The position numbers and the translations under genes are program-made. A DNA stretch of 64,000 nt, from assembly GCA_944386385.1 (NCBI GenBank), contig CALXAV010000009.1:3615-67614 (forward strand), written 5' to 3'. The DNA comes from an uncultured Clostridia bacterium (GTDB lineage: Bacteria; Bacillota; Clostridia; TANB77; CAG-508). Each line of letters begins with the position of its first letter. Position 1 is the stretch's first letter. The notes below the pieces were generated by a model. The model searched no databases and was not told the origin of the DNA. It was given only the letters and a program-made list of their open reading frames with translations. This document shows positions 1,230 to 8,147 of the stretch, piece by piece.

Positions 1230-2021
1230 TTATGGTCTTAACAAATCTTCTAAGACTACTTTACTTCCATATTTTATAATCATTGGAACTGATTTTGATA
1301 AAGTTACTCCTTCTATATTAGATTTAACATCTCTAGTTCCTGGTATTACAACCGCATCTTTTGGAATTACTATTTGACCATTTTCATTTGGAGTAATTAT
1401 ATTTCCATTTACATTATCATAAACTGGTGTACTTCCTGTAATTGTCACTCCTGCTCCAATTACTGCTCCTTCTTTTACTATTGTTCCTTCTGTTATTTGT
1501 GAACCTGCTCCAACAAATACATTATCTTCTATAATTACAGGATATGCACCTACTGGTTCTAATACTCCACCTATTATTACTCCTGCACCTAAATGCACAT
1601 TTTTTCCTATTTGTGCACAAGAACCAACTAATGCTAAAGAGTCTACCATTGAACCTTCATCAATATAAGCTCCTATATTTGTGTAACAAGGAGGCATAAA
1701 AGTAACACCTTTTCCTATAAATACACCATCTCTTATTGACACTGTAGGAGATACCACTCTTGCTTTCTCTTCTAAAGTTACTTTTCTTTCTCCCATAGTA
1801 TCTTTATCTATAGTTCCATCTTCAAATTTTATTACTTCTCCATATTTAAATCCTAGTAATATAAATTGTTTTACCCATTTATTTACTACCCATTCTCCAT
1901 TTTCTTTTGATGCTACTCTTACATTTCCTTTATTTAAATCCTCTTTAAATTCTTTCCATACTGTCATAAATTCTTCACGAGTCAACTCTTCTTTTTTTAA
2001 CATTTCAAGATATCTTTCCAT
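1230..2021 (-). CDS. dapD: Tetrahydrodipicolinate N-acyltransferase, E. coli DapD type (hexapeptide repeat)
   Basis: MPPCYTNIGAYIDEGSMVD..VGSCAQIGKNVHLGAGVIIGGVLEP closely matches the DapD core; hexapeptide repeats. Confidence 0.75.
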   Translation of the reverse strand: MERYLEMLKKEELTREEFMTVWKEFKEDLNKGNVRVASKENGEWVVNKWVKQFILLGFKYGEVIKFEDGTIDKDTMGERKVTLEEKARVVSPTVSIRDGVFIGKGVTFMPPCYTNIGAYIDEGSMVDSLALVGSCAQIGKNVHLGAGVIIGGVLEPVGAYPVIIEDNVFVGAGSQITEGTIVKEGAVIGAGVTITGSTPVYDNVNGNIITPNENGQIVIPKDAVVIPGTRDVKSNIEGVTLSKSVPMIIKYGSKVVLEDLLRP

Positions 2022-2079
2022 AATATCATCTCCTAAAATCTATTTTACTTCTGCTTGCATTATAGCATTTAAGATACCC

Positions 2080-2451
2080 TTAGTCAAATGACGATTTCTT
2101 ACTTTTATCAACAATTGCTTTTGTAATTGCTTGTCTTATTGGCCATGTTATTCTCTTATCTGCTATTCTTATTTTTCCATCATCTCTAAGTTTCTTTAAT
2201 ATAGAATTAATCACTTTAGTTAAATCTATATATAAGAAACCCGCCTGAGTATACTTTTTTGCCATACTACTTACCGTTCTTATAATTAATTCTTCATGTT
2301 CTAAATTTATACTATTATCATTATTCTTCTTAGCTATAATAATCCCATCTTCATTTACTAATAAATCATATTTTTCTTCTTTATAGCTTTTCTCATATAT
2401 TTTTTGCATCTCACTACTTAAATTAATTAGTAATTTATATTTATTATCCAT
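2080..2451 (-). CDS. Hypothetical protein (123 aa), last gene of the 6433-2080 operon
   Basis: ORF with host-like composition, 24 nt after the upstream gene. No recognisable motif. Confidence 0.55.
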   Translation of the reverse strand: MDNKYKLLINLSSEMQKIYEKSYKEEKYDLLVNEDGIIIAKKNNDNSINLEHEELIIRTVSSMAKKYTQAGFLYIDLTKVINSILKKLRDDGKIRIADKRITWPIRQAITKAIVDKSKKSSFD

Positions 2452-2475
2452 TCGAATCTCCTATCAATTTATTAT

Positions 2476-3570
2476 TTATTCATTATCCTCTAATTCATCA
2501 TCTTCATCATAAAAGAAATCTATATCATCAAAAATAGCTTCATCTTCATCTAATGCATTTTTCTCTCTTTCTTCTCTTTTTTTATCCTCATATTCCTTTT
2601 TATTTTCTTCTATATTTTTATAATCTTTTTCTAAATAACTATAAAGTTTTTCCATATCATCTATTAATTCTATATATGTTGTCCAACTCATCCCCATTGA
2701 TGAATACAGAAAACGTAATCTTTCTTCGTACCATGGATATTCTTCACAAACTCTTGGTCTTAGTCCTTCAAATGTTTCACTATCATATCTAACATTTATA
2801 TAATCTAACATTTCTTTAAATAATTTTGCTAATTTTTCTTGTTCTTCATTATATACATCTTGATAAGTTTGCCCTTCTTTTAATTCTATATCTATAAAAT
2901 CATATGCATGTTCTTTATAATCAGATTTTAGAAAATAAAAAATTTGGTCATAATAAAATATTTCTTCTACTTCGTCAACATCTATTACCTCTTCACCATC
3001 CATATAACGGTCTACATGTCCATAACAATAAATATCATAAAGATCTACTATTTCACTATGAAAATAATTATACTTTTCATTAATGACATCTAACCAATCA
3101 TTAAAATCCCAGTTAACATCATACTTTTTATTTTTGTATTGCATCATTTCTTTAAATAATGCTATAATTTTGTCTACTTTTTCCTTCTTTAAGTTTTCAT
3201 ATTTATTTTCATTAATTTTCTGTTTAATTGTTTCATATTCTCCTAATCTTACTAAGCTTTCATTATATAACCTTATACTCGTTTTTATTTTTTGTTCCTT
3301 TGACTCGTTTAAATAATCATCTTCCCATCTGCTAAAATTCCACATTAAAGTTTCGATTGATCCGAAATATATACTATTTGACTTAAATATTTCATCTATT
3401 TCGTCAAATATACTTTCATCATCTAAATCTATTTTTGGTAGCTTTATTTTTTTAACTTTTGCAATTTCCCTTACTAGTTCAATAGATTTTTCTACTATAA
3501 CTTTATAAATACTGTCATAATCTTTACTTTCCATTTCTTCTTTAAAATCTTCTTCTTTTAATTTTTCCAT
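2476..3570 (-). CDS. Hypothetical acidic protein (364 aa) with an internal duplication and an acidic/aromatic tail
   Basis: Repeated LFKEM(M/L)(Q/D)Y segments; C-terminal DDIDFFYDEDDELEDNE. No known family recognised. Confidence 0.55.
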   Translation of the reverse strand: MEKLKEEDFKEEMESKDYDSIYKVIVEKSIELVREIAKVKKIKLPKIDLDDESIFDEIDEIFKSNSIYFGSIETLMWNFSRWEDDYLNESKEQKIKTSIRLYNESLVRLGEYETIKQKINENKYENLKKEKVDKIIALFKEMMQYKNKKYDVNWDFNDWLDVINEKYNYFHSEIVDLYDIYCYGHVDRYMDGEEVIDVDEVEEIFYYDQIFYFLKSDYKEHAYDFIDIELKEGQTYQDVYNEEQEKLAKLFKEMLDYINVRYDSETFEGLRPRVCEEYPWYEERLRFLYSSMGMSWTTYIELIDDMEKLYSYLEKDYKNIEENKKEYEDKKREEREKNALDEDEAIFDDIDFFYDEDDELEDNE

Positions 3571-3583
3571 CTTTTCTCCCCTT

Positions 3584-4462
3584 TTAATTACGTTCTTGTT
3601 CTTCTTTATTTTTAGTCATTAATTTCTTTTTTTCATAAGCTTTTATAATAATATGTCTTAAATCTTCAGGTATTAATTCTAAAGCTTTATTTCTTAACTT
3701 TCTTGGTATTCCATAATATGCTTCTGAAATTCCACCTACCATACAAGCAATTGTATCTGTATCTCCTCCAATTGATATAGCTTTTCTTATTGAATCTTCA
3801 AAATCATTAGATTGTAAAAATATAAATATTGCTTGTGGTACAGTAACTTTACTTGTTCCATTAAAAATATTATTTTCTTGTAATTCTTCCAAATTATAAT
3901 CTAAATCATATCCATATTTTTCAGTAACATATTTTTCTATTTTGTCTTTGCTTTCTTTCTTCCTTGCTAAAAATATTGTTTCTGCAAGGCATTTCGCTCC
4001 TTTTATAGCTTGTTCACTATTATGAGAAGGTATAGTTGCTTTTTTAGCCTCTTTTTCAACCGTTTCTAAATCACCAAATAAAAATGCTACAGGTGAAATT
4101 CTCATAGCTGCTCCATTTCCTTGACTTGTACCATTTTCATTAGTTTCAGAGTTTGCCCATTTTATAAATGATGGAGAAAATGCATTTTTAAAAAACCCTT
4201 CTCTTTCTACAGGTTTACTTCCATACTTTTTTCCATATTTTTTCAAAGCTTCTTTATAGTCTCTATTATAAATTATAGCTTCTGCAATTGCTATTGTTAA
4301 AAGTGAATCATCACTAATAAAGCTTTCGTCTGTTAATAATTTAGTAGATGAATTAAGTATGCTTCTTCTTCTATTTACATTTATAACACCATTTCTTGAA
4401 TCTAAGAATTCTTGATATTCATACCTCGTTCCTGCTAAATCTCCTATTATTCCTCCTAGCAC
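3584..4462 (-). CDS. ADP-ribosylglycohydrolase family protein (DraG/ARH-like)
   Basis: N-terminal GGIIGDLAG..YE and C-terminal GGDTDTIACMVGGISEAYYG motifs typical of PF03747. Confidence 0.8.
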   Translation of the reverse strand: MLGGIIGDLAGTRYEYQEFLDSRNGVINVNRRRSILNSSTKLLTDESFISDDSLLTIAIAEAIIYNRDYKEALKKYGKKYGSKPVEREGFFKNAFSPSFIKWANSETNENGTSQGNGAAMRISPVAFLFGDLETVEKEAKKATIPSHNSEQAIKGAKCLAETIFLARKKESKDKIEKYVTEKYGYDLDYNLEELQENNIFNGTSKVTVPQAIFIFLQSNDFEDSIRKAISIGGDTDTIACMVGGISEAYYGIPRKLRNKALELIPEDLRHIIIKAYEKKKLMTKNKEEQERN

Positions 4463-4464
4463 TT

Positions 4465-4992
4465 TTACTCCTCATCACTAAATTTATTATATAATTTATT
4501 TGTTAATTCAATTAAATCATCTAAATTATCTTCATATTTATTTTGAATTTCTCTCATTGTTCTATATGCCATATCAAAATCATCTTTTGTAATATCTTTT
4601 TCATTAAGAGCATCTTCTAATTCATCCTCATCAAGAATTATTTGGTTACCATTTCTTCTTATAACCAAATCTAAATATAAATCATCAATATATGGTATTC
4701 CATTTTCTACGCCATTTAATTTTGCCATGTCAAAATACCATTCAATCAAATTCTTTTTATCATCATACATTACTGTAATTGCATATTTTTCATTATCAGG
4801 ATATATTTCCAACCATTCATAATTATCGTCTAAGATACATCCACTATAATCTTCATCATTAATAATCCAAGGATGTTTTACATTTTTTATTTTAACCAAA
4901 CAAATATATCCTTTAAAATAATCTTCATTTATTTGTTTTATAGAATATTCATTTTCTCCTTCTTTTACTCCATTTGCAAATCTTTTTTTCAC
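4465..4992 (-). CDS. DUF402 family protein (Ntdp/FomD-like nucleoside di/triphosphatase fold)
   Basis: YIDDLYLDLVIRRNGNQIILDEDELEDAL matches the DUF402 D-L-x-L-D ... LDEDEL signature; 175 aa is typical. Confidence 0.65.
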   Translation of the reverse strand: MKKRFANGVKEGENEYSIKQINEDYFKGYICLVKIKNVKHPWIINDEDYSGCILDDNYEWLEIYPDNEKYAITVMYDDKKNLIEWYFDMAKLNGVENGIPYIDDLYLDLVIRRNGNQIILDEDELEDALNEKDITKDDFDMAYRTMREIQNKYEDNLDDLIELTNKLYNKFSDEE

Positions 4993-5009
4993 AATAATTC
5001 ACCTCATTA

Positions 5010-5708
5010 TTAAAAATCATTTAAGTCTAGATATGTAATTTTTTCTTCCCTTTCGTTTTCTTGTAATTCTATTATACTTCCTCCAAGAAACGCTTCTAAA
5101 TCAATTTGTTTTCCATTTAAATATAATTTTCCCTTCATAAATGGCTTATATTTTTGATATTCTTCTACTTCATTACACATTCTTTCCTTTTCTACGGTTG
5201 GAATCCTCCCTGCATTTCGTATTCTTTGTTTTCTTTTTAAGAAATATGTTAAAGCCGCTTCATATATTGTAGAACTTCTATACTCTATATATGAATTAAT
5301 TTTTTTCTCAGGTATATTTAAACATTTACAATGCCAATACACTGGTCTATCTATATATCTATCATTAAAATATTTGTAAAATGCTTGTGAAAACAATGAA
5401 ACAATTTCTTGTGCTTTATATTTTCCCTTAGGTACTAATTTTTTTAATTTTTCACTATTTTCAAAAACAAAGCTCACTTCATCCGCACCTGAAATTGCTA
5501 TACAATTAAATTTATCTGAAAGAAACTTTATTGTCTGTTCAAAAATATCATTAAATCCTTCCTTACTTTCATCCAACAAATCATGTTTGATACTTTTTGT
5601 AATATCCTTTCCATCAAGTAATATCGCTATAGGTCTATTTTCGCTCATTTTTAAATCATATTTATTTTGTATATTTATAAAATAATTGTTCCATTCTTTA
5701 TTATTCAT
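5010..5708 (-). CDS. Thg1-like protein (tRNA-His guanylyltransferase / 3'-5' nucleotidyltransferase fold), intact paralog
   Basis: ILLDGKD (compare RLDGRxF), ISGADEVSFVF (compare SDEIS), KAQEIVSLFSQAFYKYF, NSYIEYRSS (compare YxxWRQ); ~230 aa. Start taken at MNNKEW (5708), 13 nt after the upstream stop; the track start is 5738. Confidence 0.55.
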   Translation of the reverse strand: MNNKEWNNYFINIQNKYDLKMSENRPIAILLDGKDITKSIKHDLLDESKEGFNDIFEQTIKFLSDKFNCIAISGADEVSFVFENSEKLKKLVPKGKYKAQEIVSLFSQAFYKYFNDRYIDRPVYWHCKCLNIPEKKINSYIEYRSSTIYEAALTYFLKRKQRIRNAGRIPTVEKERMCNEVEEYQKYKPFMKGKLYLNGKQIDLEAFLGGSIIELQENEREEKITYLDLNDF

Positions 5709-5721
5709 AATATCATCCAAT

Positions 5722-6433
5722 CTATATCGAATTATCAAACTCTATCAAATCAAAAAAATCATTTTCATCATTCCTGTTTTCTATACTTACAATATTTCCA
5801 TTTAAAAACTCATTTAAATCTATTCTATCTCCATTATGATATAAAACACCTTCTTTATCATCTGATATAAAAGAAAATTCTTCATAAGATTTACATATCT
5901 CTAACTTTTCTCCTAATTTTATACTATGACTGTTTATTCCATTTTGCTTTAAGAAGATATTTGTTATATTATCTAATATCTCTTTACTTCTAAATCTAAT
6001 ATATGATTGTACTTTTTCTTTTGGAATATTAAAACATCTACAATTCCAAAAAACTATATCTCCGATTATATAAATTATTGAAATACTCAAAAAAATATTG
6101 TGAAAATACTGATGTAATATCATGTACCCTATACTTTTTATCATTATGTATGGAACCTGCAAAATTTTCTACATCTTCTATAATAAAACTAATTTTATCA
6201 CTCCCACATATTGCTATACACTTATATTTATTAGTAAAAAATTTCTCAGTCTTTTTCATTGAATCAAAAAAATTATTTTCTTTATTTATTAATAAATTTT
6301 TTTCATTTTCTGACAAAAACTTTGCAGCCAAAGATACGATTAATGGGTTATTTATACTTACTCTCACATCATATTTGTTTCTAATATTTCCATAATAATT
6401 AAACCATTTTCTTTCTATCTTATTTTCTTCCAT
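5722..6433 (-). pseudogene. Thg1-like paralog split by a frameshift into two overlapping ORFs (6038-6433 and 5722-6162)
   Basis: ORF1 ends ..FFEYFNNLYNRRYSFLEL*. ORF2 continues in another frame with ..DIVFWNCRCFNIPKEKVQSYIRFRS, colinear with the intact paralog FNDRYIDRPVYWHCKCLNIPEKKINSYIEYRS. The shift lies near 6048-6065. Confidence 0.7.
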
Positions 6434-6636
6434 TTTCTTCCTCTTTATTATAAAATAATTGAGTAAGCAAGCTAAAAGCCTACTTACTCTTGCAATATAC
6501 TAATAACCAATGTACTAGTTCTACAAATGCATTCGTGGATTACGTTCCAACACTTAAATATTGCATATTTATTATATAATAATATTTTTCTTTAAACAAG
6601 TTTTAGATATTATTTTTTATAAATGCTTCATTTTTA

Positions 6637-7570
6637 TTATTTATTTTCTATTTTTTTAGCCTCTAATAATAATTTATCAAAATCTGATACTATTTTTTGT
6701 GTTTTATTAAATTGTTCATATTCCTTTTCTGCTTTTTCTTCCGCTTGTTTTCTCGATATTTTTCCATTATCCTTAAGTATATCATATTTACGAAATTCTA
6801 AAAATTCATTTACACTTTTTGCGAATTCCTCCATCGTAAAAGTATTTTCTCTTTCTACTAAATCTTCTATATAATCAAAGTAACCTGTAACTGCTCTTTC
6901 TAGCCTTTTTATTTGTTTTTCATTTAAATAATTTTTAGCAATCATAGCATCAGATTTTAATATTCTTCCATCAGGTGAATTTTTCCAAGTTTTTAATCCC
7001 ATATTTTCTTTTTTGTGATCTGCATTTTGATAAATTATTTCTTCTGCTGTATTGCCTGTAATTGCATAATGAAATTTATTTTGTACCATTGCATAAAACT
7101 TACGAGTTATCTCTGAATCTTTATCATAATCAATACTGCATTCCGCAAATATATCTGTTATTTGCTGCCATATTCTACGTTCACTTGCTCTTATCGAACG
7201 AATACGTTCTAATAATTCTTTAAAATAATCTTTTCCAAATTTAGGTCCATTTTTTAAAAACTCATCATTTAAAACAAAACCTTTTTTTATATATTCTTTT
7301 AAAGTATTTGTAGCCCATATTCTAAAATCTGTTGCCTCTTTTGAATTTACTCTATATCCTACTGCTATAATAGCATCTAAACTATAAAAGTTCGTATTAT
7401 ACTTTTTACCATCATTTGCAGTTATTCGAATTTTTCGAATAACTGATTCTTCTTTTAATTAGTTTGATTTAAAAATTTCTTTTAAATGATAATTAATAGT
7501 ATTTACTTCAACATTAAATAATTTGGCCATTGATTTTTGAGTTAACCAAAAATCTTCTTCATCATATAAA
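6637..7570 (-). pseudogene. RhuM-family (virulence protein RhuM-like) gene with an in-frame stop and apparently no N-terminal start
   Basis: 6637-7089 is the RhuM C-terminal half. Reading the same frame upstream gives ..FWLTQKSMAKLFNVEVNTINYHLKEIFKSN*LKEESVIRKIRITANDGKKYNTNFYSLDAIIAVGYRVNSKEATDFRIWAT.., with TAA at 7459-7461. Confidence 0.7.
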
Positions 7571-7574
7571 ACTT

Positions 7575-8147
7575 CTACTGATATGTTTTCATTATTTTGG
7601 CTTTGTCTTTTTCAATTTTCTTTTTGTATCTATCCTCTTCTGAAAAAATACAACCACAATATTTTTGCATGTAAAGTCCTATTTCTCTTGCTTTTGCTTG
7701 TCCCTCTCTAAAACCTACTCTAAAGTCTCTATATAAAAATTCCACACCATATTTTTTAGCTATTACTTCTCCTAGTTCTTTTATTATATCATGCTTTTGA
7801 TATGGACTAACTAAAAGTGTTGTTGATATAGTATCAAATCCATGTTCTTTTGCATATTTTGCAGTTTGTTCTAAACGAACTGGATAACAATAATCTTGAC
7901 ATCTAGTTTCTAATTTATTAGATACATTCTTACAAAAATCATCTAAGCCATAATTTTCTTCAAATATAGCTTCTACATTTATGCTTTTAGTATATTCTTT
8001 TAAGCAATCTCTTCTTGCTTTATATTCCATATATGGATGTATATTAGGATTAAACCAATATACTACTGGTTCTATGTTTTCACTTCTTAATTCATCAATA
8101 CAATATACACTACATGGTGCACAACAAGTATGTAATAATAATGTCAT
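7575..8147 (-). CDS. queH: Epoxyqueuosine reductase QueH (DUF208)
   Basis: LLLHTCCAPCS N-terminus and C-terminal CGC motif typical of QueH. Confidence 0.8.
   Translation of the reverse strand: MTLLLHTCCAPCSVYCIDELRSENIEPVVYWFNPNIHPYMEYKARRDCLKEYTKSINVEAIFEENYGLDDFCKNVSNKLETRCQDYCYPVRLEQTAKYAKEHGFDTISTTLLVSPYQKHDIIKELGEVIAKKYGVEFLYRDFRVGFREGQAKAREIGLYMQKYCGCIFSEEDRYKKKIEKDKAKIMKTYQ

Follow-up and report, generated by a model that had tools for sequence, protein, structure and literature searches.

The window analysed here, a 64,000-nucleotide (nt) stretch from an uncultured Clostridia bacterium, carries on its minus strand a tightly packed string of genes that runs from dapD to a remnant of a RhuM gene and is headed by two genes for Thg1-like proteins (TLPs), the decayed TLPA and the intact TLPB. 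What is new in it is a divergent clade of Thg1-like proteins with a dedicated, strongly conserved structured RNA that matches no Rfam family. The reading proposed for the locus, to which a probability of about 0.65 is assigned, is a composite one: the interval between queH and dapD, variable in this uncultured Clostridia lineage, would hold a mosaic string together with an RNA-led Thg1-like unit. This first unit would consist of a sigma-A promoter, a 73-nt RNA, usually a terminator and one or two Thg1-like genes, and would be the only unit whose parts always occur together. The remaining units would be a DUF402 nucleotide phosphohydrolase, an ADP-ribosylglycohydrolase (ARH) and, as a pair, an acidic helical protein and a protein restricted to sigma region 2, with adjacencies that are lineage-specific. 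Labels such as L001 and L006 denote homologous loci in other genomes and metagenomes.

The leader RNA and its genomic distribution

The 200-nt spacer upstream of TLPA contains, in order, a promoter, a structured segment, a terminator hairpin, and a ribosome-binding site with the start codon (Table 1). The promoter is of the sigma-A type; L001, L009, L010, L026 and L027 retain both its -35 and its -10 element, and distant copies have equivalent promoters. The structured segment, here termed the TLP leader, is predicted to fold as a three-way junction. Its first helix, P1, begins 6 nt past the -10 element in the window (6-8 nt in most copies), where it pairs GCAAUAU with AUAUUGC, and spans 7-10 base pairs (bp) across the copies. 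Strand J1/2 (UUWWKUAU) is followed by P2 (UGGA/UCCA), which has a variable loop of 4-8 nt, and J2/3 (CGAA-N6-URUAGA) by P3, which has 7 bp in the window and 5-7 bp across the copies and stacks directly on the 3' strand of P1. The terminator lies 28 nt before the start codon of TLPA, shows compensatory changes at the top of its stem and follows the RNA at most of the homologous loci, though not at all of them. The leader RNA does not figure in the initial annotation of this DNA.

Two covariance models, R1 and the aptamer-only R2, were built from near-invariant copies of the type found in L001, L009, L010, L026 and L027, and score the RNA of the window at 135.7 and 95.5 bits, respectively. In these five loci the leader DNA is near-invariant, with adjacent proteins that are only 55-63% identical. 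Because MAFFT placed the 3' ends of three divergent copies wrongly, the RNAs were aligned with a covariance model; 99.6% of the cells in this alignment are paired, with compensatory changes in eight of the 18 pairs (four in P1 and four in P3). None of 500 shuffles reached the observed covariation, and slid controls remained near zero. Scans against Rfam 15 of 10 kb and of the 216-nt leader identified no family, the best overlapping matches (E = 2.8 and 5.7) being confined to the terminator and the ribosome-binding site, and ARAGORN found no tRNA in positions 6300-6800. A tRNA-like reading, suggested by the 73-nt core and by a 7-bp P1 that is continuous with P3, was set aside, as the P3 loop is variable and unlike a T-loop; a further helix at alignment columns 29-42, proposed by RNAalifold, was dropped as unsupported. 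A literature search for Thg1 in connection with riboswitches found nothing relevant.

The distribution of the RNA follows that of the Thg1-like genes. In nine of nine distinct lineages selected by protein it lies directly upstream of a member of the Thg1-like family. These include L053 from a viral collection (49.9 bits) and L054 (52.4 bits, with a terminator), neither of which was chosen by RNA pattern. In L004 and L005, where the Thg1-like gene is single, the covariance models recovered the RNA ahead of it (57 bits for L005). A metagenome scan with a pattern derived from the invariant junctions returned 13 loci; one was a chance match and the other 12 are matched by the model, the gene immediately following in the same orientation being Thg1-like in 11 of these, and the last lying at a contig end. 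Over approximately 500 kb of locus sequence, R2 produced 20 matches (E ≤ 3e-8), all upstream of Thg1-like genes, and it found no RNA in loci that possess DUF402 and ARH genes and lack a Thg1-like gene, such as L029. Among the loci examined, no element other than the leader RNA accompanies the Thg1-like genes throughout, and the leader is very likely a real structured element tied to them.

Thg1-like proteins and the proposed role of the leader

TLPB was originally described as a Thg1-like protein with the family's carboxylate motifs, an assignment that the present searches uphold even though its match to the Pfam model for Thg1 (PF04446; E = 1e-4, 22.7 bits) falls under the gathering cut-off of 29.2 bits. 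Some of its homologs carry precomputed PF04446 matches. A search of the PDB with the single sequence yielded nothing relevant, and the relationship emerged only from a family profile and a search by fold. The profile of the family, which comprises proteins of about 230 amino acids (aa) in 114 clusters, matches the Thg1-like protein of Bacillus thuringiensis (4kgk; E = 5e-5), and the alignment brings its RiDG and SDEiS motifs into register. Residues D32, G74, D76, E77 and S79 are invariant across 30 homologs, and D32, D76 and E77 align to RiDG and SDEiS as the three metal-binding carboxylates, the counterparts of which in human Thg1 are D29, D76 and E77. In a Foldseek search of the PDB, the 32 best matches to the AF2 model (predicted local distance difference test score, pLDDT, 86.8) were without exception Thg1 or Thg1-like proteins (E = 2e-9 to 2e-6, TM about 0.6). 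The fold, the catalytic motif and the family profile make membership of the Thg1 superfamily secure despite the sub-threshold Pfam score, and TLPB is an intact, divergent member with predicted 3'-5' nucleotidyltransferase activity. In predicted palm-domain fold, carboxylates and length it resembles the bacterial Thg1-like proteins of B. thuringiensis (4kgk/4kgm) and Myxococcus xanthus. It differs from these in being only 14-17% identical, in scoring below the Pfam cut-off and in belonging to a small clade (210 representatives at E ≤ 1e-3 among 1.84 billion proteins), which often has a tandem pair of paralogs and has a structured RNA ahead of the gene in every locus examined.

TLPA, which is 38-41% identical to TLPB, has intact 238-aa orthologs in L001, L009 and L010 that keep the carboxylates. 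Relative to these, the window copy has a +1-nt insertion near position 6064 and its catalytic positions have decayed to LAAKF and GSDKIS, in agreement with its earlier description as a frameshifted paralog. The same split recurs in L006, L026 and L027 and is therefore no sequencing error. Relatives with the frameshift differ in what is left at the catalytic positions (SLDAKF, SLSAKF and GSNKIS). Programmed frameshifting was considered and rejected in favour of pseudogenization, because position 6064 lacks a slippery site and each relative shows its own pattern of catalytic decay. Some residual constraint appears to be left over: the ratio of non-synonymous to synonymous substitution rates (dN/dS) in the two frames is 0.25-0.5, and 39 of 58 changes are non-synonymous, fewer than the 83% expected under neutrality (p = 0.003). 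This could reflect either recent pseudogenization or a non-catalytic role of the fragments.

Three gene arrangements were noted in relatives. A 392-aa Thg1-like protein (P0080) is fused to an N-terminal GNAT acetyltransferase, QueH is fused to a GNAT acetyltransferase in L001 (4971-6011) and, in the distant lineage of L054 (5689-6693), the Thg1-like gene overlaps the start of a tyrosine-recombinase gene of the Phage_integrase family by 8 nt.

The position of the leader suggests how it might operate. Judged from the promoter consensus, transcription would start at or beside the first base pair of P1, so that the 5'-triphosphate end would be recessed in a helix of 7-10 bp with a 3' extension. 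Thg1-like proteins act on the 5' ends of tRNA acceptor stems (PMC3061083, PMC4820378), and the predicted 5' end of the leader resembles by analogy the geometry of this substrate. The terminator would stop most transcripts, leaving expression of the Thg1-like genes to read-through; the window offers no room for a separate promoter. A Thg1-like protein would then bind the leader, which would serve either as an operator for autoregulation or as a dedicated partner or substrate RNA; this binding would couple synthesis of the protein to the availability of its RNA substrates. That a Thg1-like protein is the binding partner of the leader, in either capacity, is given slightly less than an even chance.

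Leaders that mimic a substrate for autoregulation include those of ribosomal-protein genes and the thrS operator, which mimics tRNA-Thr. The TLP leader is similar to them in occurring only upstream of a gene for an RNA-binding protein and in conserving its single-stranded and junction nucleotides. Unlike them, it is predicted to form the very start of its transcript, with the 5' terminus embedded in a helix, and no alternative pairing is evident for the terminator that comes after it. A more specific proposal is that the leader is a physiological substrate, of which the enzyme would extend the P1-embedded 5'-triphosphate end in the 3'-to-5' direction, templated by the strand downstream of P1. 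Such extension would change the stability of P1 and hence the read-through into the Thg1-like genes. This proposal is highly improbable; if true, it would represent the first control of a gene by reverse polymerization on the 5' end of an mRNA, and the leader would be the first dedicated non-tRNA substrate of a bacterial Thg1-like protein.

The main rival to a protein-binding leader is a small-molecule riboswitch, in which the 73-nt RNA would sense, for example, a nucleotide or a damage-related metabolite and control read-through without the Thg1-like protein. A three-way junction of typical aptamer size, highly conserved junction strands on covarying helices, and a location in the 5' untranslated region, usually with an intrinsic terminator after it and with expression platforms that differ between copies, would all suit such an element. 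Riboswitch aptamers of the purine class are likewise about 70 nt long, with three helices, conserved junctions and an intrinsic terminator downstream. The TLP leader differs from them in showing no sequence or Rfam match, in having no J3/1 strand and in serving a single gene family, and it has no conserved loop-loop interaction, because its P2 and P3 loops are variable. Furthermore, no alternative antiterminator pairing is predicted, P1 begins at the predicted transcription start in most copies, and the gene context suggests no candidate ligand. Linkage to a single RNA-binding enzyme family is typical of protein-binding leaders and unusual for metabolite riboswitches. A protein-binding leader is thus favoured because the RNA is linked to one such family only, and the riboswitch is considered a rather unlikely, though serious, alternative.

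Composition and conservation of the gene string

The initial annotation reported six consecutive minus-strand open reading frames (ORFs) with tight spacing, flanked by a RhuM pseudogene and dapD, and this layout holds at the coordinates that it gave (Table 1). The intergenic gaps along the string are 24, 13, 2, 17 and 13 nt, with 58 nt to dapD, and no internal terminators are predicted within it. All intact genes of the string are under purifying selection (dN/dS 0.08-0.32). A promoter of its own is probable for dapD: 38 nt ahead of its start, and overlapping the sigma-like gene at the 3' end, is a promoter-like site (TTGACT-17 nt-TATAAT with a TG extension) that agrees with the consensus at 11 of 12 positions.

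Table 1. Features of the queH-dapD interval and its flanks in the window (ORF, open reading frame; aa, amino acids)
Feature	Position	Strand	Basis and details
dapD	1230-2021	-	58 nt from the sigma-like gene
Promoter-like site, extended -10	2059-2087	-	Consensus match only
Sigma-like gene, 123 aa	2080-2451	-	ORF list
Acidic-protein gene, 364 aa	2476-3570	-	ORF list
ARH gene, 292 aa	3584-4462	-	ORF list, Pfam
DUF402 gene, 175 aa	4465-4992	-	ORF list, Pfam
TLPB gene, 232 aa	5010-5708	-	ORF list; counted from the ATG used by homologs
TLPA, upstream Thg1-like paralog	5722-6433	-	Two overlapping frames, 5722-6162 and 6038-6433
Intrinsic terminator	6452-6489	-	Terminator scan; 13-bp stem 6489-6461 and U-rich tail
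TLP leader, 73-nt three-way-junction RNA	6492-6564	-	Covariance models, covariation
Sigma-A-type promoter of the leader RNA	6571-6599	-	-35 TTGTTT 6599-6594, 17-nt spacer, -10 TATAAT 6576-6571
RhuM remnant	6637-7574	-	ORF list, Pfam; N-terminal deletion and in-frame stop
queH	7575-8147		In the window

Conservation was assessed by scanning one genome per GTDB species with the ARH protein, which returned 14 loci, all in metagenome-assembled genomes of uncultured Clostridia, and by comparing loci through tblastn and ORF maps. Outside the window, the complete gene order was seen in L006, L008 and L026 only, all of them close relatives with the same queH and dapD flanks. In L006 and L008, with Thg1-like proteins 90% and 67% identical to that of the window, the complete string is accompanied by the same dapD-aminotransferase-M20 flank. 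At greater distances the components separate. In L010-12 (63% identity of the Thg1-like protein) the TLPA/TLPB pair occurs alone, followed by an integrase gene or by OLD, UvrD, HEPN and ArdA genes; in L001 (61%) the pair is bordered by queH-side genes on one side and a PHP gene on the other; and in L004, L005 and L054 (38-44%) a single Thg1-like gene is found amid housekeeping genes (era/recO, dnaJ/rsmE). DUF402 orthologs at 70% and 50% identity occur by themselves, away from the other string genes. Sister species with dapD genes 87-98% identical have each string gene present or absent independently between queH and dapD: the full set occurs in L026 and all except the 364-aa gene in L027, L028 and L030 retain the ARH, 364-aa and sigma-like genes and have neither Thg1-like genes nor DUF402, L029 possesses only DUF402 and ARH, L031 only RhuM and ARH, and L037 and L038 a decayed ARH gene and the sigma-like gene. 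Among the loci examined, the Thg1-like, DUF402, ARH and two other genes were not found as neighbours under different flanks.

These patterns bear on the proposal, put forward with the initial annotation, that the string is one co-transcribed cassette, in which a Thg1-like polymerase, a DUF402 phosphohydrolase and an ARH would reverse RNA or tRNA damage as a counter-toxin or anti-phage system; the two other proteins would then act as accessories. Its case rests on the 2-24-nt gaps and the lack of predicted internal terminators, on recurrence of the full order in the three close relatives and, minus the 364-aa gene, in L027, on the RhuM gene in the neighbourhood and the OLD/UvrD genes and integrases in relatives, and on a precedent, since bacterial Thg1 genes have been found beside genes for ADP-ribose-handling Macro domains, polynucleotide kinase and RNA ligase (PMC2904730). 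Yet each component is individually dispensable among the sister species, distant orthologs of each occur in the absence of the others, and the leader RNA follows the Thg1-like genes only. A scan of all ORFs with PADLOC (PADLOC-DB 2.0) matched no model to any of the six genes, the RhuM remnant alone being recognized. In line with the earlier remark that a described system combining these activities is not known, a literature search found no paper joining Thg1-like proteins with ADP-ribosylglycohydrolases. Polynucleotide kinase, Macro and RNA ligase, the published neighbours, are absent from the Pfam lists of the neighbours in L001-L012 and L054, in which respect all loci examined here differ from those described for bacterial Thg1 genes. 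The initial domain calls all stand and the gene order does recur in other genomes, while the three-activity cassette is not supported: the order is limited to close relatives with shared flanks, and elsewhere its components occur alone. As an explanation of the locus, the cassette is very unlikely.

The tight spacing is a lineage-specific juxtaposition, possibly co-transcribed, and no conserved multi-enzyme system, because the sister species are mosaic, distant orthologs stand alone, PADLOC finds no match and the published Thg1 neighbours are absent. Read from the genomes compared, the string is likely to consist of co-directional, separately inherited units and not to be one obligate system.

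A second alternative is that the queH-dapD interval is a mobile or defence hotspot. On this view the ARH, 364-aa and sigma-like genes would have a mobile origin, would have no relation to the Thg1-like genes and would serve as accessory genes in defence, anti-defence or the takeover of transcription. Inside the interval, the RhuM remnant matches the PADLOC entry PDC-S05. It has lost approximately 25 N-terminal codons, so that the queH stop abuts RhuM-internal sequence, and it has an in-frame TAA at 7461-7459; a full-length RhuM gene occupies the same site in L027 and L031. An OLD-family ATPase gene accompanies RhuM in L016 (2745-7249), OLD occurs with a UvrD helicase (Gabija-like), HEPN and ArdA in L010 (7500-16987), and L011 (7642-12606) contains an integrase, which suggests that the region downstream of queH or of the Thg1-like pair is an integration or defence hotspot in relatives. 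The 364/123 pair adjoins a DNA-methylase/R.HinP1I fragment in L013, the ARH protein matches a phage family (PHROG 6572, E = 1e-44), and the string has a guanine-plus-cytosine content of about 24%, compared with about 30% for the dap genes. Conversely, the surroundings of 2080-4462 showed neither an integrase nor repeats nor any other boundary of a mobile element, PADLOC recognizes none of these genes, their dN/dS of 0.1-0.3 is that of ordinary chromosomal genes, and ARH, the gene most stably kept beside dapD among relatives, lies there across many species in the manner of stable synteny. A mobile origin of these three genes is accordingly judged unlikely.

Two observations concern the flanks in relatives. 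The genes found downstream of queH or of the Thg1-like pair include OLD/UvrD, HEPN, ArdA, integrase and phage replication genes. In L001, L009, L047 and the window, and not in the distant lineages, 0.2-1.6 kb separate the leader RNA and Thg1-like pair from an upstream queH, a tRNA-modification gene for epoxyqueuosine reductase; this proximity probably represents synteny rather than functional linkage.

Several points count against the composite reading of a mosaic string with an RNA-led Thg1-like unit. For the leader, the copies in L004, L042 and L043 have no terminator, the alignment behind the pair counts was itself fitted to the covariance model, and P2 is invariant and has no covariation support, partly because the search pattern fixed it. 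When eight leaders were folded with the 5' strand of P1 blocked, the terminator persisted in all of the minimum-free-energy structures, and no conserved antiterminator was seen in the minimum-free-energy folds of these eight; on such modelling the terminator looks constitutive. The binding of a Thg1-like protein to the leader is deduced by analogy. For the string, given how closely the genes are packed and that no internal terminators are predicted, the leader promoter may in this lineage drive all six as one transcript; a lineage-specific functional coupling of the six is possible, and differential loss from a larger ancestral cluster would give an identical mosaic pattern.

The downstream proteins and the significance of the locus

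The two enzymes encoded immediately downstream of TLPB were correctly assigned at the outset. The 175-aa protein, which is acidic, belongs to the Ntdp/FomD-type DUF402 family (PF04167; E = 4e-14, 53.1 bits against a cut-off of 23.9) and has a weak sequence match to SA1684 in the PDB (7d8g, E = 0.03). The 292-aa protein is an ARH/DraG-type ADP-ribosylglycohydrolase (ADP_ribosyl_GH, PF03747; E = 1e-31, 110.9 bits against a cut-off of 26.2) that keeps the motifs of the binuclear metal site, an N-terminal GD (GDLAG) and a C-terminal GGDTDT, in alignment with ARH3; among solved structures, ARH3 and Lmo0067 come closest to it (E about 1e-15). The likeness of the two proteins to Ntdp/SA1684 and FomD, and to ARH3 and DraG, lies in Pfam membership and, for the ARH, in the metal-site motifs, the DUF402 structure match being weak. 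A His_Phos_1 phosphatase gene is found near the Thg1-like pair in L001 (6026-6595) and directly upstream of a DUF402 ortholog in L021 (6463-6984), which may represent a weak recurring association.

The last two genes were both left as unknowns in the initial annotation, and one of them can now be placed. The basic 123-aa protein aligns to regions 1.2-2.4 of primary (sigma-70) sigma factors, with matches to RpoD in NCBIfam (E = 7e-8) and the PDB (E = 4e-5); Pfam region-2 models gave no match at E ≤ 0.1. A profile of seven homologs matches residues 109-203 of SigA (E = 1e-7), and all 52 of its matches are primary sigma factors. The protein contains RITWPIRQAITKAI and then ends, and its RITWPIRQAIT aligns to TWWIRQAIT of SigA. 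As read from these sequences it is not a complete sigma factor, because the chain stops 5-10 residues past region 2.4, without regions 3 and 4, in all seven homologs. The 364-aa protein is acidic, as first described (isoelectric point 4.4, 100 D and E residues), and has 29 homologs. The structure prediction called for at the time gives a confident all-helical fold (AF2, pLDDT 89.1) with a disordered acidic tail at residues 342-364, for which Foldseek found no structural match in the PDB or BFVD (best E = 1.9 and 0.38), and searches of Pfam, NCBIfam and PHROGs returned nothing significant.

The two genes recur as a pair, without the rest of the string, in L013-15; in L013 (8001-9488) the context is unrelated and identities are 40% for the 364-aa protein and 42% for the sigma-like protein. 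They are separable, since the sigma-like gene occurs without its partner in L027, L037 and L038, and a homolog of the 364-aa protein without the sigma-like gene in L016. A 602-aa homolog of the 364-aa protein (P0126) was considered as a fusion of the two and rejected, as it includes no sigma-like part; it has no sigma-like partner gene. Split or partial sigma factors are represented by SigO-RsoA of Bacillus subtilis and gp55 of phage T4. The 123-aa protein is like these in having region 2-type sequence only and an adjacent partner gene. It differs in that no region-4-like domain was detected in the 364-aa partner by Pfam, NCBIfam or Foldseek, the core-binding helix of region 2.2 has diverged, and the pair is separable. 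By analogy, the pair may be an RNA-polymerase-binding or split-sigma-like module. A sigma-region-2-only protein with an acidic partner that has no structural match is a secondary curiosity of the locus, and one that may act on RNA polymerase.

The comparative analysis also warns against reading tight spacing in compact low-GC genomes as evidence of a system. Bacterial Thg1-like proteins repair 5'-truncated tRNAs in vitro, and their natural substrate and inducing condition are not established (PMC3061083, PMC6471195). A dedicated, conserved RNA ahead of one Thg1-like clade makes the in vivo role of these proteins experimentally tractable: whatever binds or switches the leader should show under what conditions a cell needs a 3'-5' polymerase, and the target may be the RNA itself.

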